Assembly (NCBI GenBank): GCA_004022145.1
Contig: RCNU01000002.1
Origin: Paecilomyces variotii
Lineage: Eukaryota
DNA: 64,000 bases
Reading direction: 5' to 3' (one strand)
Positions within the stretch are counted from its first letter, which is position 1, and every line of letters starts with the position of its first letter. The translations under genes and the position numbers were made by a program. Below the pieces are notes generated by a model. It made no database searches. It had not been told where the DNA came from and worked only from the letters and a program-made list of their open reading frames with translations. This document shows positions 17,157-35,946 of this stretch, one piece after another.

Positions 17157-18397
17157 ATGCATCAGATGGAATCGATAGTTCAATTTTCGCAGCAAGAGAC
17201 AGGAATATCGGCGGGCACTTTCCTTGAAAAGGATCGAACAAACATTCACGCTGCCGAAATCCAGCATTATGTTCCAAGTCCGCTGTCCGAAGAAGAGCCC
17301 GAAACAATAGAGAAACTCCAAACCGGATACATGCTTTCCGATCTCAGGCAAGAACCTCTGCATTTCTCGGAGTATTGCAATTACTGATCTCTTCTAGCAA
17401 TATTGACAAGCGTCATGCTAGCCCCTTTGAATTGGCGGCACATATACTCCATGCTTTAAGTGCCATTCTGAGTCTTGCGGGAACGATTGTCTTCTGTCTA
17501 TGGCCACTTACTCTGCCGTTGATGCTATTTTATATCTTCTGGATACTGAAATCGAATGATGGATGTTCCGGAAACCTCTGGCGTCGAAGCGAGAACGTCC
17601 GTCGTTCACGCATCTTGAGGGCCTTTGCATCCTACTTTCCGTGCAAGCTGCGCCGCACCACTTTGCTATCTCCAAGACGCAAATATATATTCGCGTATCA
17701 TCCCCACGGCATAATCTGTCATGGTGCTTTCGCAGCATTTGCAACCGAGGCGTTAGGCTTTTCCAAGCTATTTCCAGGAATTACCAACGCACTCCTCACA
17801 CTGGACACAAACTTCAAGGTCCCATTCTATCGGGAGTATATCCTGTCCACCGGTCTCGGAGGAGTGTCGCGCAGCTCCTGCAGGCGCTTGCTATCATCTG
17901 GCGGCCACGACGGCAACGGAGCTGGCCGTGCAATAACAATTGCGGTTGGGGGAGCGCGCGAATCCCTCCTCGCGAAGCCAGGCACAATGCGAATCATCAT
18001 TCGAGGACGCAAAGGCTTTGTGAAGCTCGCTGTAGAACAAGGGGCCGACCTCGTTCCTGTTCTCGGGTTCGGTGAGAACGACCTATATGACCAAGTCGAA
18101 GCCGATCACTATCCTTCAATCAAGCGACTGCAATCAATACTGAAGCAGTCCTTGGGGTGGACATTGCCGATATTCTACGGACGCAGTATTTTGGGTGGCG
18201 GTCGCGGCTTTTTGCCTTATCAGAAGCCCGTTAATGTAGTTGTTGGGGAGCCAGTGAACGTTGTGCGTCAAGAAGAACCTGATCCTGAGTATGTTGATCA
18301 TGTCCATCAAGTCTACATGGATGAGTTACGACGCCTGTGGGACAAATGGAAGGATATATATGCGAAGGACAGAAAGGGAGAATTGGAGTTTCTGTGA
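17157..18397 (+). CDS. dga1: Diacylglycerol O-acyltransferase type 2 (DGAT2/DAGAT family)
   Basis: YFP, YHPHG, GGARE, RKGFVKLA and LVPVLGFGENDLY motifs, plus N-terminal TM segments. The 5' exon joins in frame only through a GC-AG intron at 17348-17397. Possibly a secondary paralogue. Confidence 0.92.
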
Positions 18398-19368
18398 CTT
18401 GTGGAACGCAACGATATTGAGTGTATGAAGGAAAGCGGCAGACGCCGAGGGACATAGAACTGTTTTGTGACATTCCTATTCTAGCATGAATAAAAGTCTC
18501 GACAGATAGTATAAATGGCAGTCGATTCGTGCTTGCTATGGAGCAGTCCATTACCTCTCGGTGTACTTTCTCTTTTGTCAAGAAAGTTGTCCTATAGCCA
18601 CAAAAAAAGAAAAGAAAAAAAAACCTCCGAGGGAGATTCTCCGAATACAAGCCTAAACTGGTTTCGCAGGTGGATGACCGACACCTCAAAAAAACGGGAA
18701 GATAGATACATAGAGTGGTCAGCGATATCAGTGCAAAGGAATGGTTAGAGGATATATCCATGGAATCACCGACGGATCCATAGGCCTCGTTTCACTAAGT
18801 TTGAATCAGTTACTTCTCATGAATATCCAAGATTTCTTTTTCAGACCATATCAGATGTCGTAAATCTAAAGTGTGGACGATTATTCTACTCTAGTGCTGT
18901 GACATCACATCGCTGCTCTGTGGGCCGGGAAGTTCGGAGGATCTATCAAGTTGATGCTTGGCCAACATCCTGTTCTTGAATACACGAGAAGCTGGTTCCA
19001 GCCCCGGATCCTTATCCTCCAATCTATACCAAGTAATTAATCGGAACGTCCCAACTCTAGTAAGCAGATATGGGTACCGTGTGCATCAAATGCGAATTGG
19101 AAGCTCCCAGGTACAGCACACTCCACAAAATCACAGCTCCCACACTGGGGTTCGATCGGGTGTCTCGGGCTAGTTACTACGGTTTAGTTACATGTTCAAT
19201 AATGTGAAAGTGACATGCCTTATCGAAGGATGTGCGTTTTGCACAAATGACGTCGCCATGTTTTAAATTTTGAATAAGTATAAGAAAGCTGGCCTGGGGA
19301 ATCGATGCGCCCTACCATGGTTTCAGGCTCACAATCTCCGGTCCATTGATTCATTTCGGAACTGCAAG

Positions 19369-21196
19369 ATGGGCCTCTTAAACTATATTATATCGTTGGT
19401 CTACCAAGTGATCCAGTTTTTTGTTTCAAAGTTCTTCTCCCCTACTCCTCCAGCACCTCGGAGAAGGATCAGTAATGCGCGCCGTGTTGCTGTTATTGGC
19501 GCAGGGATTACTGGTGTTTCGTCTGCTGCACATTGTGTTGGTCATGGATTCGAGGTCACAATCTTTGAAGCAAAGGGGAGAGATCATCTGGGGGGTATCT
19601 GGAGTGTGAGTTCATCTGAAGAATTATTATAGGGATCAAGAGCTAATGGGATATCGTTTACAGCAAGTAAACCCGACATCATCTTTACAAATCCATAGCC
19701 TCATGTACCGCTTCCATCCTTCTGTGAGGTTCAAGAATGACTATCCCCACCGCGACGCCATCATCAGAGAGGTCACGGATTTGTGGAAGAGATATAGACT
19801 TGATGAGCGGACTGAGTTCGAGGTTCCGGTCCAATCTGCCTGGAAAGATGAAAAGACTGGGAGATGGATTGTCCAAGATCCTTCCTATGGCTATTTTGAC
19901 GGCGTTATCGCTGCTGTCGGTACTTGCGGAGACCCTAAAGCACCACATATACCTGGCCAAGAGAATTTTTCAGGCCAGATCTACCACTCCTCTCAACTCG
20001 CGGGTAAGGATGTGAGAGGCAAAAACGTCATTGTCGTCGGAGGTGGTTCTAGTGCTGTTGAGGCCGTTGAGTTTGCAGTACAAAATGGCGCAGCGCAGAC
20101 GACAATATTGGCTAGGGTATGTATATTATCATGACCTGTCAAATGGAGAGAACTTTCAAGCGCTGACATGTCACCATAGTCTAATAAATGGGTCATACCA
20201 CGAAACCCACTTATTGACGCTCTGCTGTCTCTTAACATTTTTGGCGAAGAAACCGAGTTTGCTTGGGTGCCCGAAATACTGTTGAAGCAATTCTTCTACC
20301 GAGATTTGGAAGACCTGATCCCCACTGGAAGAGGCCTGTACACAGATACGCCCATGGTCAACAATGACATCTTGGAAGAGGTGCGTAAAGGGAAGGTTAA
20401 GTGGCTGCGCGGTGACATCAAAGAGTTCGCGGAATCGGGACTCGTTTTCAACCATCGCGCCAAAGGTGTTCCTAAAGGCGGACCCGGAGAGGAAATTACC
20501 GTGAAGGGCGATATCTGCATCATGGCTACAGGTTTTCATAGACCCAGTCTGGGATTTCTGCCAGGTGATGCCTTCAAGGAACCTTACAAGCCGCCGAACT
20601 GGTTTCTCCAAACCTTTCCAGTTGGCCATACAGATATTTGTGCCAACAACTGCACGTACATCAATGGGATCGGCACCGTGGGCAATATTCACATAGGCCT
20701 GTATACGAGGTTGCTTTTGATATTTCTGGTGGATCCAAAGACACGTCCATCGACACCCTGGATGCGCATCTGGGTCGACTGGACGCGGATGTGCAAACGG
20801 GCTGCTCCAGGTGGCGCACTCGAGTTCTTTACCTACAGCGAACTCATATGGTGGATAATATTCAATATATTCTCGAACCCGTGGAGATGGAGATGGGTCT
20901 TCTTTGTCCTATGGGGATGGGGAAGTATCCCAGCCAATAATGCTGGAAGGGAAAATTTGATCATCAATGGCAGCACCAAATCCGGGTCCAACGGCCAAGG
21001 ATCTAAGCCTGGTAGCTCTGATAATGAGAAGCATTCCGAAACCGACAACAAGCCAACCTATTCCGCTGCTCTGGCATCGAATATGCCGAAAGGGCAACCA
21101 AGGATGAAGAATCTGAAAGAAGAGCCGCCATTCGCGGATACTCAGAGTCAGGAAGGTCGTGAAGAGAAGCAAGAAGCAGCAAAGAAAGACGCCTAA
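19369..21196 (+). CDS. Flavin-containing monooxygenase (FMO/BVMO-like)
   Basis: Two Rossmann motifs (VIGAGITG, VVGGGSSA), GGIWS, FMO-type motif FSGQIYHSSQL and ATGF. Three exons. Hydrophobic N- and C-terminal segments. Confidence 0.9.
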
Positions 21197-21595
21197 TCAC
21201 TCCGAATCCTTCTGCTCAGAAAATGCCAAAATCAGGATCTAGTCTACATCAAGGTGGTTGTCTAAGAACATACTGCCGATTGGGGCTATATCTAAAATCC
21301 CATCATCGAAGGGAACAGCAGTGGGCGATTATGGATAGCTCGAATGGGAAGGATTTTTCGGTCTGAAATGCATTGTAAAATAATTCGACAGATGAAGGCC
21401 TATATCAATGTAATGAGAGGATTTTGTGACAGTACGACGTTGTAGTCCATAGATACAACGCTCCACTGCTTCTCGTAGCATCTATTGGAGAAGTTAAGGC
21501 ACTGGAGCTCCTCTGACATGCTAAGGAGAAAACAAGACAAGTTACAGTTTTCAAAAGAAAGATCACATTAAGAATAGCAAAAAGCCCCTGCGCGT

Positions 21596-22651
21596 CTAAA
21601 CATATTGTCGTATTTCGGGCTGGATCTCGGTCCAGCGATCCATAAGTTCATCCCACAATCTCCGCTGGAGCTCAACGCCCCTCTTGCTGCAAAGGATATA
21701 TGGTGGTGCACGTATCTCCGAATCACTCAAATATTGACCGTGTGACTCTCTCCCTACACAGGCAGCATGCACTAACGTTCTGCTTCCAACCTCCGCGGTG
21801 CGCGCTAAAAGGGTCTTGATTATATAGGTAGGCGTGGGCAACTCCCGGAGAAGATTCGAGTGGCATAGTCCGGGATTGACATAATTGACCACGACTTCGT
21901 CGTGGTCTTGATGTCTCGCAAAATACTCGCGGACTATCATAGCAGCCATGACTTTACTGATATGGTACCTCCTCAACATGTAGGCTGTCCTCTTCTCTCG
22001 AAGCGCCCCCAGGATATTGGGTGCTTCCAGCTCCGTGAGTGAGGTATGGAAGATGACCTCGCTGCAGACGAACGACAAATGAGCAACGGTCCCATGATTT
22101 CGTGATGTTTTCTTCAGGCTCGGCAACAACATAAAGGCGAGGAGGAAAGTGTTGATCACATTGACAGTTATAGTGGTCTCGTCCCTATCGACTAGTCTGA
22201 AAGTCGGAGTTGCCACAGCAGCGTTACATACAACTGCATCTAATCTGTCAAGACAATTTGCCCTGTTCACAAAGTTCTTGACAGAGTCGGATGAACTAAG
22301 CTCCAGACCCCAGCACTCGACAACATCGTGGCGCCCAGTGATTGATTCAATTATCCTTCGCGCCTGCTTGCCTTTCTCGTCATCTCGTGCAGTGATGATT
22401 ACTCGCTGGGCCCCTAATCGCACGAAGTGTGTTGCTGCTTCCAATCCAATCCCTCCACTGGAACCGGTAACAACTACTGTTTTCCCAGTCCAGTAGATGA
22501 TGGGATAAGGAGGCTCGACGAATAATTGTCTGTAGAGGAACAAAAGACCAAAATAAAAACTGCTGAAGTATGAGAAGATCCAAGAAAGGAGCGTATTTGG
22601 TTCAGGACCATGCCCCAGGAACTTGGTAGACATTGTGAATGGATAGATCAT
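21596..22651 (-). CDS. Short-chain dehydrogenase/reductase (retinol-dehydrogenase-like) with N-terminal membrane anchor
   Basis: VVVTGSSGGIG, VCNAA, YHISK (YxxxK) and VNPGLC. The start is uncertain. A possible extra 5' exon at 22905-22833 would splice in frame via intron 22832-22726. Confidence 0.9.
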   Translation of the reverse strand: MIYPFTMSTKFLGHGPEPNTLLSWIFSYFSSFYFGLLFLYRQLFVEPPYPIIYWTGKTVVVTGSSGGIGLEAATHFVRLGAQRVIITARDDEKGKQARRIIESITGRHDVVECWGLELSSSDSVKNFVNRANCLDRLDAVVCNAAVATPTFRLVDRDETTITVNVINTFLLAFMLLPSLKKTSRNHGTVAHLSFVCSEVIFHTSLTELEAPNILGALREKRTAYMLRRYHISKVMAAMIVREYFARHQDHDEVVVNYVNPGLCHSNLLRELPTPTYIIKTLLARTAEVGSRTLVHAACVGRESHGQYLSDSEIRAPPYILCSKRGVELQRRLWDELMDRWTEIQPEIRQYV

Positions 22652-23173
22652 ATAAGAAATGATTTTGCCCAGGACAGACTGTCTCAAAGATGTAGACAGT
22701 TTCAAGTCGATATTCGTACCAAAGCCTGGGGGTTCAGCAATCGATGCTTTACATTTTATCGCAGCGATAGTGACTATCTACCCTTGACCCTGGCATTGGT
22801 TACTGACGAATACTATCGTGCCTATATCATACCTTCGGAAGAGCATCCGAAGTTCGAGAAAATGTTGGTTACCAACTTGGAAGGCTTCAAATATGATGTC
22901 AGCATGATCTTGTCCCGTCTGTACTTGTTTTCCTCTGGCGGGCTGAAGCAGATTCTCCAGCAAGATAATGATATTTGTCGCCATGCGTGGACAGAGCGCA
23001 CTGAGGCAAAGGCCTATAACTCCGCCAGGAACCCGCTAGGGAGTCTCCGGGACTTTCTGCATTAGACAGTAGTGTAGCTCCCTAGTGACCTTGCCTCCGA
23101 ATAATACAGTCCCTCAAGTTTAGTTTCTATTTGTTGATTCACTCATATCGCACTGTAGCTATTTCATCCGATG

Positions 23174-25988
23174 CTAATAGCGCTGAAATCTCTTCCGACA
23201 GACTTTAGCAGCCTGTGAGTGCCGCCCCTTGTCACATTTATAGAGGATCGATGGCCCACAATGCACATCATCCCTGCAATAACAATCCATCGAGCTTGCA
23301 CAACCAGGGTAATAGCTATATTCAGACTCCTCCATAACCTTACGAAACAGCGGCGGTACAAAAATTCCTCGAGGGTCCTGTTGACGTGCCGTGTCCAGGA
23401 AGTTTTCCAGTTCAGGATACTTGTCTTTCATAGGACATTCAGGGTGAAGAAAGGCTCGTTGTGGATTCTTGCCCCAGTGCGCTCGGGCGCCGTATTTACA
23501 GAATGTAATCTGCTCTATCTCGTCCAAAATGTCTTGGTGGTGGGCAGGAAGACCTGCAAGGCCCTTCGAGACAAGCATGTCTATGTAGACCGTGTCTCTC
23601 CCGTAGGCCATGTCGAGTGGGGCGTCCGAACCTTTTCCAAACCGCATGGCGAAACCTAGGAGCGATGGCAGACATCCTTGATGAGGGATAAGATCAGTGA
23701 TCGCGCGGACTTCTCGAATCCAGTCTCCGAGGTACCGGACATCCATATCAAACTCAATCAGAATCTGCACTTGATTCTGCCAGTAGCATCCCGAGAGACG
23801 ACCCCTACAGCTAGAGCCCCCTAGGCGATGTGGCCACCCGATAATGCTTTGATTAAATATCTTCCAGTGTCCAATCTCACCTTCCTTGTACCAGAATGGA
23901 GGAGGACGCTGCTCAAAAAAGCAAATTCCCCAGTCGGTGGGCAGCGGCGTGAAGTTGATCTGATCGATAGCGAGCGAGAACTTTCCACCAATAGCAGCCC
24001 ACGGACGGTGTTCGAAGAAGCTGTGAAAAGCATCCCCTGGGGTATCAGGAGGCACAGATGTATGCCATCGGACAATGGCCGTACGTGCATTGGGATACCA
24101 CATCACTCGTGCAAACGAGAGTTCCCTCACAAGCATGGCAATTCTTTCTGGAAGTCGTCGATCTGATTCCTTAACCACCTGTAGTAAGAAATGTTAATAA
24201 AGCATTGTGGGAAATAGGTACTTTTTGCGACTCACAGTGGTGTTAAGCTTGTACATTTCCGTCCCTTGGATCTCAATCTCAGTGACAATCCCTAAAAGAC
24301 CCATAGTCCCTATCCACCTTGTTGGATTATCTTCTTCGCGCACTTCGCCTCGACCGTCCACGTAGGTTATTCGTGATATTGCGTGTCCGAACGCCGATGG
24401 TCTTTCGGTGGAACTGCCATGGGCGCCCGTTAAGAACATTCCCCCGACTGTAAGTCCCGTAAAGATCGGTATATAGTCCGAAGGCATGCTCATTCCCAAT
24501 TCGTGCATAGTGTCCATGAGGTGGTCCATCTCCATTGACGGCTGTACAGTGATCGTTTTCCGCCCTTTGTCCCATGATAGCACGTCACTCATGCGAGACA
24601 TATCAAGTTGCATAGCACAATCCCCAGCTTTGACATTAACGCATGGAAACTTCACAGTACTATGGTAGAGTTGCCTTGAGGCACGAATGCTGAGCTGATC
24701 GCTACCTTCTTTGGATCCTAGAGCGATCGGGCATCTGTCAAGGCCACTCTTAACGATCGATGCAACATCTATGGTGGTTTCCGGCATATAAAGTTCTCCG
24801 CCGTGAGGTGGACATTTTCGAGGATACCATGCGCTCTTGATGACATTAGGTAGATCCCCCCGGCCAAATGTAATAGACGGTGCTCCCATCCAGTCGTACA
24901 AATAGATCAACAGGAGTCCCACCAATGTCATGATAAAAGTGAGACGAAACAGGGCCTTGAAAGCATTCCCCACCAGCCTGATAAGCAAAGGCGGTTTCCG
25001 CTTTTTTGATCCCCAGAAACCATCGCCACCGAGACCCCAGCCTTGGGACCATCCTGTTCCTCGAGACCGTTCCTGGGCTATTCTCCAGAAGAGTGACCCC
25101 TGCGAGTATCTTCCTGTAAGCGAAAGTAAATACTAAGAAGGCGATTTTCGTTTCAAAGCATATAACCTACATCATATAGCTGGCGGAGATCTTCCTTCTG
25201 GACTTTGCCATTTCTCTGGAGCAGTATCCAAGTGGTTCCGAATTCGAAGAAAGCAGCAGACCACTATTCAACGTCAGCCAGCTTTTCACGGTTATCAATT
25301 GCGTGATAGAAAACAACATACCCCATAAGGATCGACGGCACATCGGTTACCACTCATCAGATTAAATATCTGCTTAAGAGAGAGATCGTTGGCACCAGGG
25401 CTGCTGAATTTCGCGAACAGATTCTCAAAACTTTGAGCTACAAACCGCCCTTCGTGGTCATAGACGTTGCTATCTGATGCATGCTAGTCCGATAAAAGAA
25501 ACCGTAGCAAGTCAGCGCATCAGCTTCTGGTATCAACACGACATAAGAATAGACTTTTGTAACACCTACTTTGGCTTTATGAATACTGTCCAGGTAGACT
25601 CGGAAGAATGGGTCTGGAATCACGCTATGCGCGAGGCGTGTCGGATAGGAGAAACCACCATTGATGACCATTATCGCGAATATAGAAAAGGGAATATTAA
25701 AGCCGAGCTCTCGGAAGCCTCGATAGGTATCCAAGGGCCAAATGATGCCATCTCCATCCCGGTCCCAGAAAATCACATGTTGCTGTAACACGCTCTACAC
25801 GTTTCATCTAGTATTAGCGAGTGTGCTGCAAGGTATCAAGGCACGGCAGATTCCTGATGACATACATAATCTTTGAACTTCTCGTAGTGAGGTCCTTTAG
25901 AACCGCAAGGGTTCTCATTCGACACCGCAAGATTGGCTCGAGCGACTCCTGCTTTAGGTACTCCTCTTGGTGCATCAATTTCCATCAT
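23174..25988 (-). CDS. Caleosin/peroxygenase fused to a plant-type L-gulonolactone-oxidase-like FAD oxidase (predicted 823 aa)
   Basis: Six exons, all phase 0 with GT-AG introns: 25988-25866, 25794-25570, 25483-25322, 25263-25171, 25099-24236, 24178-23174. Caleosin motifs SVLQQHVIFWDRDGDG, YPT...PDPFFR, KAKHASDS, EGRF and GSLFW...GWSQGWGLGGDG continue without a stop into a TM helix. Then come FAD_binding_4 motifs (YHSTVKFPC, GLTVGGMFLTGAHGSS), an ALO-type motif (KYGARAHWGKN) and a Cys-rich tail. Confidence 0.85.
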
Positions 25989-26680
25989 TAGATGTCTTGG
26001 ACTGAAAGTAGATGCGACGCAATACACGGTTTCTGTCTGCGCTATATAGGGTAGAATGAATGGCACTGTAACAAACTCACTCTCCATGTGCACTAGCCCC
26101 CTTTAGAGCAGATATCAAGTTTCTCTCCTTGAAATCTGGTCTGTTGTAAGCTTACATAGCCTCGGGTCCGATCTGGCGGCAGAAAACTTGCAAGGTAGCA
26201 ATGCGGATGGGGATCCGAGATGTCGTTGAGCATTGTTGATATCATGTTGGGGAATAAGTATCGACTTTCTGATAAAACATTTGATTTCACGTGTCACCAC
26301 CTTCCGAGATTTCCACAGACCCCTGCACTTTCACTCGAAAAGATCCAGATCAGCTGCAACATAGCCAGGGAAATCCATCTCAACAAAGCCACCCTGCAAA
26401 TGCCTCTGGGTTTCCTTACCAATAATGTCCCCATGGTTTCGAACTGTCCCACCAAATATCGTATCGAGACTACATAATGTAGCCCACTGGACTTGCATTC
26501 TCTAAATACGGTCCCGGATTGCTGTCCAGGTCTTCCGCACTGAATTCGACGCCCAAAAGGAGTACGTATCTATCTAAATGGGAGAAACGCTTAATATTGC
26601 TGTGAGAAGTTAACATGCATTTAGACAGAGAACCTTGCCAATAATCCCCTTGCCTTCGGGTAATTACTTCCTTTTCCACT

Positions 26681-27723
26681 ATGCAGAACGGCAATTCAGC
26701 CTTCGAAATCGCAGTTCCCAAAGCGACAGTAACACAGTCCAGACTGTTAGCAGTTGATATCGACAACCACGTTAATCTTCCTACAGGGGCGCGCGGAAAC
26801 CTGGGACCATCTATAGATAGTCCGCGAGGTTCCCCAAAAGACTCGCATAAGTACGAAGATTATGTGAGTTCTGGACTGGTGTATCCTGCTTTTCCCCCTT
26901 CAAGACTGAAACGTCACTAACATTACCAATTGCGAGGTTAGACACTTCTGCAGCAACACGTACTCTTCTGGGACCGGGATAACGATGGCCAGATTACACC
27001 CATCGATACATATATCGGCTTTAGGGAACTAGGGTTTAATATCATATTCTCTCTCCTGGCAGTTCTGGTCATAAATCTCAATTTTTCATATCCGACCAGG
27101 CTTGCGTATTCGTGGTTCCCTGATCCTTTCTTCAGAGTCTATGTGCCTAGTATCCACAAGGCAAAGGTTAGCGAGAATACACCACGACAAAGCACTTTTT
27201 TTTAACTCTCGATTTGCTCCTCAGCACGGTTCAGACAGCGGCGCAATTGATAACGAGGGACGTTTCGTTTCGCAGGCATTTGAGAATATCTTTGCCAAGT
27301 ACGACAGGGAAAATCGCGGTTGCTTGAGTCTTGCCGACATCTTTCGCATGATGAAAGGGCAGAGAGTCGCTGCTGACCCGTTTGGTGTAAGTGACCGACT
27401 ACGTTATGTCCTGAGGACCACCCCCTCAACCAAAAGAAAAAAAAAAAATTAAAAAGACACATACCATATAGTGGGGAGCAGCCTTCTTCGAATGGGGGAC
27501 AACCTGGCTATTGCTTCAGAAAGGTGGAATGGTCTACAAGGAAGACCTGAGACAGGTCTATGACGTGAGTAGTAAGGTCTTTCTATCCAATTCGTAACTA
27601 ATTGCTTTCCTGTAGGGGTCACTATTCTGGAAGATTCGCGACAAGCGATTAAAAGCAGAAGGTTGGCGCCAGGGTTTTGGCCTAGGAGGTGATGGATTTA
27701 TTGGATCCGTTAAGGTTACCTAG
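26681..27723 (+). CDS. Caleosin / peroxygenase (canonical, 256 aa)
   Basis: Exons 26681-26863, 26942-27166, 27225-27386, 27472-27564, 27616-27723. TLLQQHVLFWDRDNDG (His + EF-hand), proline knot YPTRLAYSWFPDPFF, KAKHGSDSG, EGRF, DPFGW and GSLFWKI...GLGGDGFIGSVKVT*. Confidence 0.95.
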
Positions 27724-28233
27724 GAAGGGAGAGAGAGGCAGGAGGGTGGATGCAGTGGCTTTTGGGGTTATTGCTGGGACACGAAAACACTAAGGTGGCA
27801 TTTATTCCTCCGCATCGCGAACCAGACATATCGGACTTGTTGCAACAAAGCTAGCCATCCTATTCATGGATAACGCATGGACACACTCAGATAATCTTTG
27901 AGTTTTTTGATTTGGACCTATTTTTCTGGGGTAATTCTTTATCAGTAGAAGTTTGAAACGGGAGAGGAGCGAGAACTTCTTGGTTGGGAATGTCCTGCCA
28001 TAGTAGACCACAAGTCCTTGAACAATATATGAACTTAGGGAACTCGATAATGTTCAGAAATACAAAACTTCTATCACTGGAACTTTCGGCAGGAAACCAA
28101 ACACGTCATGTATACCTCACGTGCAGCTGTACCCAGTGAGACAACTTAAGGCATTTATTGAAATATTGTGCCTCTGGAAACTCTCTAGCTGATATTCTCT
28201 CCAAACAGAAAGACTTTATTAGACTTTGAGACT

Positions 28234-29507
28234 ATGGAAAAGTCCACTATGCTAGACTTTGCGGTTTGCGTTCCCAATAGTTCTGTGACACAAAAGCGCC
28301 TCCCTGCCATTTACGTTGAGAATGATGCTAGACGTCGGAACTTGCAAGACACTGCTGAAATCGAGGCATTCAATACGCTACCCAAAGTTGCACGGGATGT
28401 AGGTCTGCTAGCTTTATTCTGAAGATAACAGTTCTCTGACTATTGAGCCAGAGCTCATTTCAACGTTATTTGGCGTTTTTCGATCGAGATGATGATAGTC
28501 GTGTCTCACTGTTCGATAGCTTCGTGGCCTTTCATGATCTCGGTTTTAACACTCTTTTCTCTTTTTTGATTGCAACTTCGATGCACATGGCTATGTCATT
28601 ACCGACTAGTCTGGCCACGCGAGGCCGAATTGATCCATTTCTGGCCATATATTTCGGGACGGTCGTAAAAGCCTTGGTCCGCATCTTCTTTACCTATCTA
28701 CGTGTTTTATTTCAGGCTAAAGTTGTGGAAGTAGCTGCTCCAACTTTGGGGGCATACCTTGTTCGATGCCGAAGGTCGATTCCAAGAAGAGGTCTTTGAG
28801 AGGCTATTCTCCAAGAGTAGCAAAGAAGAGCCAGACTATCTCACGTTGAGCGAGGCCTATGACTTTGTTAAACGGCGGAGAGAGCCTTCGAGTCCTATAG
28901 GTGTATGTTCCTACCTACCAATTTTTAACATGATTGAATATTTACTCTTTCAATAGTGGATCCTGGTCATTGCTGAATGGCATGTCATATGCCTTCGGCA
29001 ACGGAATAGGTTACTGAGCCGCACCGGTTTGCGTCAGATATATGATGTTAGATGGCCCATTGTGATTTATAGAGCTCTTTCCGGGGACACTGACTGTGAA
29101 GAATCAAGGGATCCGTGCTCTGGGAACTTCGGAAGCAACAAAGATCTCATCACAGATATTGGCCCGATTACCATGCTATTTCGCATCCTATAGAGGACCT
29201 TACGAACCCTGCCTATTGGCCGCCCGTGAGTTCAAGCTTTTGTATCGGTATACAATGCTATACTATTTTCGAGTTATTAACGCTTGCCTAGGCGCTTCAG
29301 TCTGCGATGGACAAGACTCTCGCTTACATTATACTTGCTCTTTTTGCAGCCTCGTTCGCCGTTCCGTTATTTGCATATACCTGTATTGCTGGAGACCCCG
29401 GAAAAGAGTTAAAGACCATACTTGCGGTCATGACATCTAGTTTCTGTCTTACATCCTGGAGATTTGGTAACTATCTGCAGGCGGAGAGACAACGACTACG
29501 TTCTTAG
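28234..29507 (+). CDS. Divergent caleosin-like protein lacking both conserved heme His, with extra C-terminal TM extension (326 aa)
   Basis: Exons 28234-28398, 28452-28676, 28735-28902, 28957-29046, 29109-29225, 29292-29507. Intron positions match the other two caleosins. FQRYLAFFDRDDD, LPT...IDPF, FDAEGRF, LRQIYD|GSVLW. The last exon is less certain. Confidence 0.8.
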
Positions 29508-34406: not shown

Positions 34407-35289
34407 TCACAGGATGAATCTGTTCTTCTTTCGGTTGTAGGCTCTCTGGTCCTTGAGCCACTGGCGGTAGCCCTGGACGCTGCCAATCTTCTCACCATAG
34501 TAATCTGGGACAGGGTTGGCGAGGGAGTTGGAAGAGGGGTCCACGCGGTGACGCTTGATTCTGTTGTAAAATTCCTTTTCTTTCTGTTATGGGTTTTATT
34601 TAGCACAGTTCATTGTTATATGGGATGATTGATCTGCAAGATCTTGCAGATCAATAAGAGGGGGAACTCACCACCGCAACTCCAGACTTGTATCGTCGGT
34701 GGACAAGTCCCCAGACAGCATTTCCGAGGAAAGGACCTGCCAGCCAACCAACAGCACCGCAAGCAGCCGTGGCCAGTCCCAGCACAACGAACGGGTCAAG
34801 GCCCATCACTTGTGCTCCCAGGTTTTCTAGGTCTTGGGATGAGAGAATCTGAACGCCAATGGCGGTACTGGCTATGGAGGCAACGATCGAAGAACCAAGC
34901 GAGTATCGTCTCCGGGAAGTCCGAAGCTTGAAGAATGTATTCCAGTCGAGAGGAGCGTCTTGGTTGTATGAAGACGTCTTTGCAGAGGCAGTCGAGGTGG
35001 TGGAGTTGAAACGGATGCAGGACCGCTGGATAGCGATCTTAGCGATGCTCTGAACATGCTGGGACCGCGATGACTTCAGGACGTTTGCCTGTATGGGACT
35101 CTGGAAAGGAAGGTTGTTTTGACATTTTGAAACCGTGCCTGCTGGTTGTCTTCGCTGCTTCGTCGAGATGCTGCGGCAAGACTGCTGGAACGAACTGGTG
35201 GAATACGCAAATGGCGCAAGAGGGCCGGAGGAGATCCGGGTCCCCAGCGCAGCGGTGCGCAAAGGTGCGTTGAGAGCTGTCATATGCAT
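34407..35289 (-). CDS. pam17: Mitochondrial presequence translocase-associated motor subunit Pam17
   Basis: LDWNTFFKLRTSRRRY, GLDPFVVLG, GWLAGPFLG. Second exon KEKEFYNRIKRHRVDPSSNSLANPVPDYYGEKIGSVQGYRQWLKDQRAYNRK. Confidence 0.95.
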
Positions 35290-35946
35290 TGCAAACCAAG
35301 CCTGTCAAACAATCGACTGGTGCTCTTAGCGGTGGTGAATGTCTGGAGCTCTGGTAAAGGCTTCGATGGTCGTATGAGCATCAAAGCGTCAAAGGTTGCG
35401 GGAGCTTGACCGTCGCGTTACATAAGCAACAACCAAACCATCATTCGATCATGGAAATGGAAAACCCGGGCAAAAGTGCTTGAAGATGGTAGTTTTGTGG
35501 TATTTTTTGTTTCTTCGCACAGGGAACTGGCACACTTTATAACAAAAGGCAGATTATATTTTTCTCCCTCTCTAATTCTGGACTGTTAGGCCTGCTATTT
35601 TGTTTACGCATAATGAGTGGATAACGACCGAGTCCGTGCTCAGCTTAAGTACTACCAAATACTTTAGGATCATATGGACAAGAACCGCGTGCATTTCATT
35701 GAGAAGACACCTCCGTAATTCCAGCGGAGAATTGACTACATGCAATATGTGACGACATGCTATACAGTGATGTACGGTGTATTTCCATCGTCGTTATATC
35801 CATCTACAATGATACAGATCGTCAAAAACTTATATATGTTGCTGGTCGGTTTATATGCTCCCATGCTCTCCATGGACTTTGAGGAAACGGCAAAACGACA
35901 CTCAATGTCCGGCTCCTTCAGTTAAAAAGACTAGAGGAAGGCGGAC

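Follow-up and report, generated by a model that had tools for sequence, protein, structure and literature searches.

Caleosins depend on a peroxide donor whose source in the cell is unsettled, and the GULLO-like proteins of plants have been left without a convincing substrate or role. Here we describe a minus-strand gene of the fungus Paecilomyces variotii in which these two protein families are joined in one reading frame. The gene lies in a stretch of 64,000 nucleotides of contig RCNU01000002.1 (assembly GCA_004022145.1), the whole of which is termed the window, and it had been put forward in an annotation made from the letters of the window alone (the sequence-only reading). Its exon structure, transcripts, protein modules, relatives and possible function were analyzed computationally and compared with the closest described systems.

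Caleosins are described as carrying a single EF-hand Ca2+ loop beside a lipid-binding segment (available text of PMC6309107). The canonical fungal caleosin/peroxygenases, represented by AfPXG of Aspergillus flavus (P0199) and by a paralogue adjacent to the gene in the window, belong to the same Pfam family as the fused caleosin, which retains 33 of 34 columns with a conservation of 90% or more among 46 canonical caleosins; the window paralogue has exons of 225, 162 and 93 nt as well. Unlike them, the fused caleosin forms a branch of its own, has no stop codon after its 35-codon C-terminal tail and is followed by 587 more residues, which comprise a predicted transmembrane (TM) helix and then a flavoenzyme.

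The counterparts of the flavoenzyme are the GULLO2-like proteins of plants and green algae (AtGULLO1-7, MsGulLO and the Chlamydomonas and Dunaliella proteins P0056 and P0034), with which it has three domains, the HS, GAHGS, MRF and HWGK motifs and, in the family alignment, a Pro at the putative gatekeeper position in common. Those proteins stand alone and the relatives mostly begin with a signal-like N-terminus, whereas the fusion has an internal helix placed after the caleosin. Within this group, AtGULLO5 is placed in the cell wall and is reported to be without oxidase activity in spite of its gatekeeper Pro (available text of PMC11505616). MsGulLO, which is secreted into nectar and has a signal peptide but no flavin, is reported to show only weak oxidase activity on several lactones and sugars, and a role as H2O2 maker has been proposed for it (available text of PMC6077269).

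Members of both families have been met together in the lipid droplets of Chromochloris zofingiensis. According to the accessible portion of PMC6818385, the abundant proteins of these droplets include short-chain dehydrogenases and several caleosins alongside a plant-type GULO, which is droplet-targeted in yeast as well. The same three kinds of protein recur at the present locus, where the fusion gene adjoins a short-chain dehydrogenase (SDR) gene and two caleosin genes. In C. zofingiensis they are separate proteins, and in that portion of the report the GULO is stated to be without a TM segment (PMC6818385). By analogy, this droplet proteome may be taken as an independent hint of a functional link between GULO and caleosins.

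With regard to fold, GalDH, alditol oxidase and DprE1 resemble the flavoenzyme at TM-scores of 0.68-0.76 (normalised to the target), with an identity of only 14-18%. Natural two-module oxygenases are known in DUOX and in the fungal Ppo dioxygenase-P450 fusions, whose families are unrelated to those of the present fusion. Engineered oxidase-peroxygenase cascades and chimeras, such as AAO with UPO (available text of PMC7358221), likewise tie a peroxide producer to a peroxide-using haem enzyme; they are built from unrelated protein families, whereas the fungal fusion has a membrane helix between its modules, whose coupling is putative.

No description of a caleosin fused to an aldonolactone-oxidase-like enzyme was found in the literature that was searched, most subscription journals being outside its reach, and the terms 'FAD', 'fused' and 'oxidase' are absent from the available main text of a survey of 344 fungal caleosins (PMC6309107). 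NCBI, for its part, holds fused "hypothetical protein" models for other strains of P. variotii and for Exophiala sideris. The sequence-only reading knew of no described protein with this architecture, which is borne out for the literature searched, while the databases already contain fused models: what is new is the caleosin-flavoenzyme architecture, and what was already known are both families and the fused hypothetical proteins.

Gene structure and transcript evidence

An exon model of the fusion gene was built from donor and acceptor sites. It comprises six exons on the minus strand (25988-23174), and the joined coding sequence of 2472 nt is translated into 823 residues with one terminal stop (Table 1). 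The two modules meet in exon 5, which begins with GSLFWRIAQ at 25099 and extends over 288 codons as far as its GTGAGT donor (24235), with the raw frame open for 301 codons; its codon 36 is CCG and no stop. The plus-strand paralogue has exons of identical sizes (26942-27166, 27225-27386 and 27472-27564), and its last exon (27616-27720) consists of 35 codons ending in GSVKVT, after which a stop follows. A stand-alone Penicillium caleosin (P0027) ends at the same tail position. By comparison with these sequences, the ancestral caleosin stop would lie directly after the 35-codon tail of exon 5. The position of intron 5 is common to all relatives seen, the exon-5-like open reading frames (ORFs) of six sequences all finishing at NTTV, and the 823-residue translation differs from the NCBI model P0012 at 16 of 822 aligned residues.

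Contigs of four RNA-derived runs (X1, X2, X4 and X6) were aligned to positions 22900-26300. Those of X1 have zero differences from the window sequence. Record 1 of X1 (3711 nt) aligns as 25483-25322, 25263-25170, 25098-24233 and 24175-22900, which corresponds to exons 3, 4, 5 and 6 with introns 3, 4 and 5 removed, while record 3 joins exons 1, 2 and 3 and reaches 26226. From another study, the metatranscriptome X6 contributes record 13, which spans from within exon 3 through exon 4 to the end of exon 5. In X4, which belongs to a third study, introns 1, 2, 3 and 5 are spliced and exon 5 lies in three pieces, with a 6-nt gap between the first two. The X2 contig is unspliced, derives from a different strain and is uninformative on splicing.

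Between them, the spliced contigs of X1, X4 and X6 bear out the boundaries of all five introns. The joint across intron 1 (25794 to 25866), the joints of exon 3 and the intron 5 joint are present in X1 and X4, and the joints flanking exon 4 in X1 and X6. The decisive joint, from exon 4 to 25099 (aligned as 25098/25170, with the cut at +1), is thereby present in two studies, X1 and X6. Neither a splice joint nor an indel is listed inside exon 5 in the contigs of the runs examined. Where exon 4 is spliced to 25099, no stop codon occurs before 23176, and such transcripts hence carry the fused frame. The fusion is confirmed at the level of gene and transcript, and it is expressed.

The sequence-only reading had proposed one in-frame gene that runs from a caleosin through a basic patch and a TM helix into an aldonolactone-oxidase-like flavoenzyme. 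The spliced RNA contigs, together with the conservation of the junction elsewhere, uphold it. Its particulars were recovered as well, namely the internal exons of 225/162/93 nt in both neighbouring caleosin genes, the last caleosin exon open from 25099 for 288 codons with CCG at codon 36, and the stop of the paralogue after codon 35. In RNA, exon 5 is spliced at 25099 and uninterrupted.

At the 5' end, the untranslated region contains a one-codon upstream ORF at ATG 26157. An in-frame upstream ATG at 26087, which lies within the transcript contig, would add 33 residues to give a total of 856, and the JGI model P0015 starts there. Because the strain of run X2 has a 5-nt insertion after 26047 that would break this 33-residue extension, the conserved start is probably 25988 or 25985.

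Existing models of the fused protein vary in length. In the P. variotii cluster of 30 members, model lengths of 806, 822 and 790 residues occur. The model of 806 residues has an extra predicted intron near its end that is unsupported, since the X1 contig is continuous over 22900-24175. In the fused model of E. sideris (755 residues) the linker has been spliced out by the gene predictor. The identical 755-residue protein (P0022 cluster) is deposited both as E. sideris and as Elasticomyces elasticus, which are fungi of different classes, and this suggests a labelling or contamination problem in one assembly.

Table 1. Coordinates of the fusion gene, its parts and the neighbouring genes in the window.
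Feature	Position	Strand	Remarks
5' untranslated region, as far as RNA contigs reach	26226-25989	-	X1 record 3, unspliced 25866-26226
Exon 1	25988-25866	-	123 nt, 41 codons; N-terminal caleosin segment; ATG 25988, second ATG 25985
Exon 2	25794-25570	-	225 nt; first haem His (LQQH), EF-hand loop, hydrophobic lipid-binding segment (residues 71-89)
Exon 3	25483-25322	-	162 nt; second haem His (KAKH.SD)
Exon 4	25263-25171	-	93 nt; Pfam Caleosin
Intron 4	25170-25100	-	71 nt, GTAGGT...CAG; joins caleosin to long exon 5
Exon 5	25099-24236	-	864 nt; caleosin tail, linker and FAD-binding half
Caleosin C-terminal tail (GSLFW...GWGLGGDGFWG)	25099-24995	-	first 35 codons of exon 5; ends in basic patch KKRK, 25006-24995
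Linker	24994-24836	-	poorly conserved; one predicted TM helix, internal ATG 24931
FAD-binding (PCMH/VAO-type) half	24835-24236	-	rest of exon 5; YHS His motif, IPIF 'gatekeeper' region, GAHGSS
Intron 5	24235-24179	-	57 nt, GTGAGT...CAG; after ...KLNTTV
Exon 6	24178-23177	-	1002 nt, 334 codons; ALO cap domain (MRF, HWGK) and Cys-rich GULLO2-like C-terminal domain
Stop codon TAG	23176-23174	-	
DGAT2-type acyltransferase	17228-18394	+	E 4e-83
FMO-like monooxygenase	19267-21196	+	three ORF pieces
SDR	21599-22777	-	hydrophobic N-terminus, laid out like plant steroleosin
Caleosin paralogue	26942-27723	+	
Third caleosin paralogue, divergent	~28440-29200	+	Pfam Caleosin E 3e-13, 2.4e-09 on two ORF pieces
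Pam17	34654-35304	-	E 3e-33
FAR-17a/AIG1-like protein, PF04750	36146-36769	-	E 4e-27

Caleosin and flavoenzyme modules

Pfam was run on the exon translations. Caleosin (PF05042; EC 1.11.2.3) is matched on exons 2, 3 and 4 with E-values of 2.4e-30, 2.7e-15 and 1.6e-06 (106.1, 57.1 and 28.6 bits against a cut-off of 27). The two haem His, H46 and H116 in the numbering of P0012, are 100% conserved in the 46 canonical caleosins and are present here as well as in the Exophiala fusion, and D51, D55 and G56 of the EF-hand are conserved beside the hydrophobic segment (residues 71-89). In terms of these features the caleosin module is complete, with its EF-hand, both haem His, the lipid-binding segment and a full C-terminal tail. 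It departs from the family in size: caleosins usually have 25-30 kDa and end shortly after the tail, and the present protein extends to 823 residues. A sequence search of the PDB with the caleosin part returned 0 matches at E up to 1.

In the flavoenzyme, the Pfam matches follow in the order FAD_binding_4 in exon 5 (E 6.6e-11; 42.5 bits against a cut-off of 26.4) and, in exon 6, ALO (E 1.2e-17; 65.0 bits against 23.1) and GULLO2-like_3rd, PF22906 (E 2.5e-08; 33.9 bits against 27). Of the 26 columns conserved at 90% or more in 19 oxidase relatives, the flavoenzyme retains 25, HS, GAHGS, MRF, HWGK and the C-terminal Cys motif included. The YHS of the fusion aligns with the plant SHS motif, and the His of this HS motif is presumably the flavin-linking His of oxidases. 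HWGK is also present, in line with the HWXK motif named in the available text of PMC11505616.

The best solved relative by sequence is GalDH (8qnr, E 2e-14). At the gatekeeper position, where Gly or Pro goes with oxidases and Ala with dehydrogenases, A113 of GalDH pairs with an Ile before a Pro in the HMMER alignment, and the family alignment pairs that Pro with the plant Pro. The Glu of the E-x-R substrate motif of GalDH aligns with Ala here (A-M-R). An AlphaFold2 (AF2) model of the fusion, made with an 84-row alignment, has a mean pLDDT of 85.1 and a pTM of 0.71; both modules are mostly above 90, and residues 215-288, with a helix at 238-269 inside, are below 50. Foldseek retrieved GalDH (8qmy) first (TM-score to the target 0.68-0.70) besides alditol oxidase (0.76) and DprE1, at E-values of 1e-23 to 1e-17. 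As modelled, the oxidase part has the two-domain VAO/PCMH fold.

Among the matches listed, the named proteins closest to the flavoenzyme are GULLO-like proteins of green algae and plants, with 26-38% identity, and no named stand-alone fungal member was present among the matches whose names were looked up. By a crude hydropathy criterion, 13 of the 19 stand-alone relatives start with a hydrophobic, signal-like segment. The fusion lacks this usual N-terminal signal peptide and has the internal helix behind the caleosin instead. On its motifs and domains, the oxidase is assigned to the plant/algal GULLO2-like branch of the aldonolactone/alditol oxidoreductases (VAO fold), as a complete and Cys-rich member.

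Conservation and origin of the fusion

Relatives were collected by a HMMER pass over 1.84 billion representatives (1995 matches, of which the best 150 were considered), by a profile search (374 matches, the best 120 considered) and by a metagenome scan for the junction, in which 1 of 131 pattern matches was a relative (L001). In the Logan ORF P0004, from an Exophiala cluster, the last caleosin exon continues into the oxidase without a frame change, by way of a linker that is basic and hydrophobic. Two further in-frame junction ORFs are among the matches listed, P0033 (47% identity) and P0189 (54-56% identity), and L001, a soil contig of 1217 nt, contains caleosin exon 4, an intron, the junction exon, another intron and the start of exon 6. 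The in-frame junction is accordingly present in at least five lineages, P. variotii and four others, and the two modules are not always encoded by separate genes in relatives. It is common to members of the Eurotiales and Chaetothyriales at 46-58% identity.

The linker has 58-62 residues across the five lineages. In three of them no Met occurs from the caleosin tail through the linker to the middle of the FAD domain, which leaves their oxidases without a separate start codon ahead of the helix. The end of a Penicillium cinerascens caleosin model (P0032) matches exon 5 of the window in another frame (E 5e-09), which is the frame reached through an acceptor at 25113 that is discussed below; P. 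cinerascens probably also has a homologous long exon. A tree built from 33 caleosin modules pairs this candidate with the P. variotii fusion at 100/96 and adds the Exophiala fusion to the pair at 86/85 (not starred); the fused branch is separate from canonical caleosins of the genera Paecilomyces, Penicillium, Talaromyces, Fonsecaea and Capronia. Two Onygenales models with a stop just after exon 4 (P0035 and P0191) were considered as hidden fusions and were rejected, as they are not grouped with the fused branch.

The fusion is sparsely distributed. Caleosin and oxidase families occur together in 1 of the best 120 of 374 matches (precomputed Pfam column), and three representatives of more than 700 residues among the best 150 of 1995 were matched through their oxidase part only. 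No Protein Atlas cluster of at least 50 members has both domains, and the nearest Atlas clusters, GULLO2-like ones of Streptophyta and Chlorophyta at 0.82, are a lead only. When the junction alone (residues 1-130 of the long exon) was searched against proteins of near length, none of the 44 candidates was significant. The sequences fit one old fusion event followed by patchy retention. In such an event, a caleosin gene would have lost its stop and captured a secretory-pathway flavoenzyme downstream, and the linker helix would have replaced the N-terminal signal peptide of the flavoenzyme and would serve as a signal-anchor.

The same patchiness (1 of those 120 matches), together with the broken alleles of L001 and of the strain with models P0016/P0013, might be read as the mark of a decaying read-through, in which a recent stop loss in a tandem gene pair yields a joined product without selected function. 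Such decay is hardly credible in view of a junction kept in Eurotiales and Chaetothyriales at 46-58% identity, a linker length held at 58-62 and the retention of nearly all conserved residues in both modules.

Several observations weigh against one joined protein. The reference annotation has two genes, a caleosin (P0015, RWQ98723.1, 211 residues) and an oxidase (P0019, RWQ98722.1, 566 residues), which match the window translations when compared side by side by eye. The oxidase model starts at the internal ATG 24931, which lies inside the TM helix and could start a separate oxidase, and in P0190, on a 1294-nt contig, the first residue is a Met that directly precedes the helix. Exon 5 also has an alternative acceptor 14 nt upstream (exon start 25113); its use would shift the frame and leave a 212-residue caleosin that is unfused and has a short out-of-frame tail. 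The fusion is moreover broken, or seemingly broken, in some genomes: in L001 the Trp codon of GS.FW is TGA (L001 136-138), with the downstream frame still open and conserved, and the models of one P. variotii strain are split at the GS.FW place into P0016 (204 residues) and P0013 (409 residues). Lastly, contigs cannot show single molecules, and X1 record 1 overshoots 22900 by about 1.3 kb and presumably enters the SDR gene that lies downstream, so that contig continuity alone is no proof of one mRNA.

The TGA of L001 and the model split of the P. variotii strain coincide at one Trp codon in the caleosin tail. A stop there could be due to coincidence, knock-out alleles, errors or recoding, and for the TGA in L001 A-to-I editing or read-through may be considered too.

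Two separate proteins could be made if the 25113 acceptor were used for the caleosin (212 residues) and an internal promoter with ATG 24931 for the oxidase, the fused frame being a by-product. We regard this as very unlikely, since the contigs of X1 and X6 use 25099 and not 25113, the reference caleosin model reads into intron 3, which is spliced out in X1, X4 and X6, and use of the alternative acceptor would cost the caleosin its conserved 30-residue tail. It would agree with the two genes of the reference annotation, with the existence of that acceptor and its early stop, with the linker Met of P. variotii and P0033, with the start of P0190 at a Met before the helix and with the GS.FW-codon stops in L001 and, by gene models, in one strain. 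It does not agree with the lack, in three of five lineages, of any Met from the tail of the caleosin as far as mid-FAD domain, nor with the frame kept across a diverged linker in all five.

Membrane topology and proposed function

The TM helix is predicted at about 24964-24884 (residues 247-273), with a Kyte-Doolittle maximum of 2.18, and the linkers of all five lineages contain a hydrophobic 19-mer (1.99-2.44 on the same scale). A basic stretch precedes the helix. Across the five lineages, the net charge is +3 to +4 in the N-side flank and -1 to +3 in the C-side flank; the N-side is higher in four of the five and equal in P0189 (+3 in both flanks), where the weak asymmetry counts against the argument from charge. 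Of the 18 Cys, 16 lie in the oxidase part, as do all three NxS/T sequons (N487, N564 and N598). In the caleosin, the two haem His flank the hydrophobic segment on either side, a layout that fits a hairpin with the whole caleosin on one face; a single span of this segment in bilayers has also been described (available text of PMC6309107).

Owing to the secreted-looking relatives, the placement of Cys and sequons and the charge of the linker, an opposite-face topology is favoured, somewhat better than evenly: the caleosin would be on the cytosolic face of the endoplasmic reticulum or a derived membrane, and the flavoenzyme would be lumenal or outside. Taken as a whole, a single membrane protein composed of caleosin, linker helix and flavoenzyme is the best explanation, at a rough probability of 0.6.

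Opposite faces had been raised in the sequence-only reading as an alternative to a self-sufficient peroxygenase, in which modules on the same face, or in contact, would pass H2O2 directly from flavin to haem. The alternative fits better than that main proposal, given the secretory features of the oxidase module and flank charges that are at least as high on the N-side as on the C-side in five of five lineages. The haem His on both sides of the hydrophobic segment, which favour a hairpin, and the weak or absent oxidase activity of plant GULLO-like proteins in the available texts of PMC11505616 and PMC6077269 also speak against the same-face arrangement, and we consider it decidedly unlikely. 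It can appeal to the existence and conservation of the fusion, to the acceptance of H2O2 by a caleosin (PMC12295067), to the single-span caleosin segment (PMC6309107), which would put the first haem His on the oxidase side, and to the deliberate coupling of oxidases to peroxygenases by engineers (PMC7358221), as far as the available texts of these sources go.

The linker itself changes rapidly in evolution: two P. variotii strains differ at 16 positions, 5 of which are within residues 215-267. Its pLDDT is below 50. Both properties would suit a fusion polypeptide that is cut after synthesis, the helix acting as an internal signal, a protease such as signal peptidase freeing a soluble secreted or lumenal flavoenzyme and the caleosin keeping an extra C-terminal anchor. 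The fusion would then serve co-expression and co-targeting and not one-chain catalysis. Stand-alone relatives do look secreted (a hydrophobic N-terminus in 13 of 19), MsGulLO is a nectar protein with a signal peptide (available text of PMC6077269), and a second predicted TM near the C-terminus is reported in 19 of 40 selected fungal caleosins (available text of PMC6309107). Against cleavage, a small-x-small site behind the helix is not kept throughout the five lineages, and we deem it an unlikely, though serious, rival account.

In the single membrane protein preferred here, the flavoenzyme would oxidise a sugar-lactone or polyol-like substrate and make H2O2 locally, and the caleosin in the same membrane patch would use that peroxide on unsaturated or hydroxy fatty acids. 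The oxygenated fatty acids may feed the neutral-lipid pathway of the neighbouring genes (DGAT2, FMO, SDR and two more caleosins). We put forward this peroxide coupling of flavoenzyme to caleosin tentatively, as a possible function. H2O2 crosses membranes, which leaves room for the coupling. A caleosin accepts H2O2 as oxygen donor (available text of PMC12295067), and this speaks for it, as does the joint presence of GULO and caleosins on algal lipid droplets (PMC6818385). If the modules lie on opposite faces, the peroxide would have to cross the bilayer, which tells against the coupling. The family biochemistry tells against it too: AtGULLO5 is without reported oxidase activity and MsGulLO is weak and flavin-free (available texts of PMC11505616 and PMC6077269), and the rice caleosin OsPXG9 takes H2O2 as oxygen donor less well than the organic hydroperoxides that it prefers (available text of PMC12295067). 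Complex prediction of the caleosin against the oxidase module scored 0.00 in two runs without controls and carries no weight on contact in either direction. As an account of catalysis, the coupling is an attractive hypothesis, made less straightforward by topology and family biochemistry.

Neighbouring genes

The genes around the fusion (Table 1), from 17228 to 29200, form a possible cluster for lipid oxidation and storage. In the divergent third caleosin the first haem-His motif LQQH is replaced by FQRY, and this protein may on that account not bind haem. AIG1-family proteins hydrolyse fatty-acid esters of hydroxy fatty acids, and the AIG1-like protein of the window could be tied to the nearby lipid genes.

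Significance

Overall, the reference annotation of this locus is corrected, in that two models, one of which retains an intron, should be one gene, and a possible lipid-oxidation gene cluster is flagged around it. If its modules are catalytically coupled, the protein would be a natural counterpart of the oxidase-peroxygenase cascades built by hand (available text of PMC7358221). A wider and rather doubtful reading would have GULLO2-like flavoenzymes as the dedicated peroxide suppliers of caleosins, and the fungal fusion as a self-sufficient lipid peroxygenase in an oxidised-storage-lipid cluster, with a sugar-derived substrate oxidised on one face of the membrane and lipid epoxidation or hydroxylation on the other or the same face. 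For the two families, a conserved natural fusion provides a concrete and testable hypothesis by which caleosins may be linked with the GULLO-like proteins.

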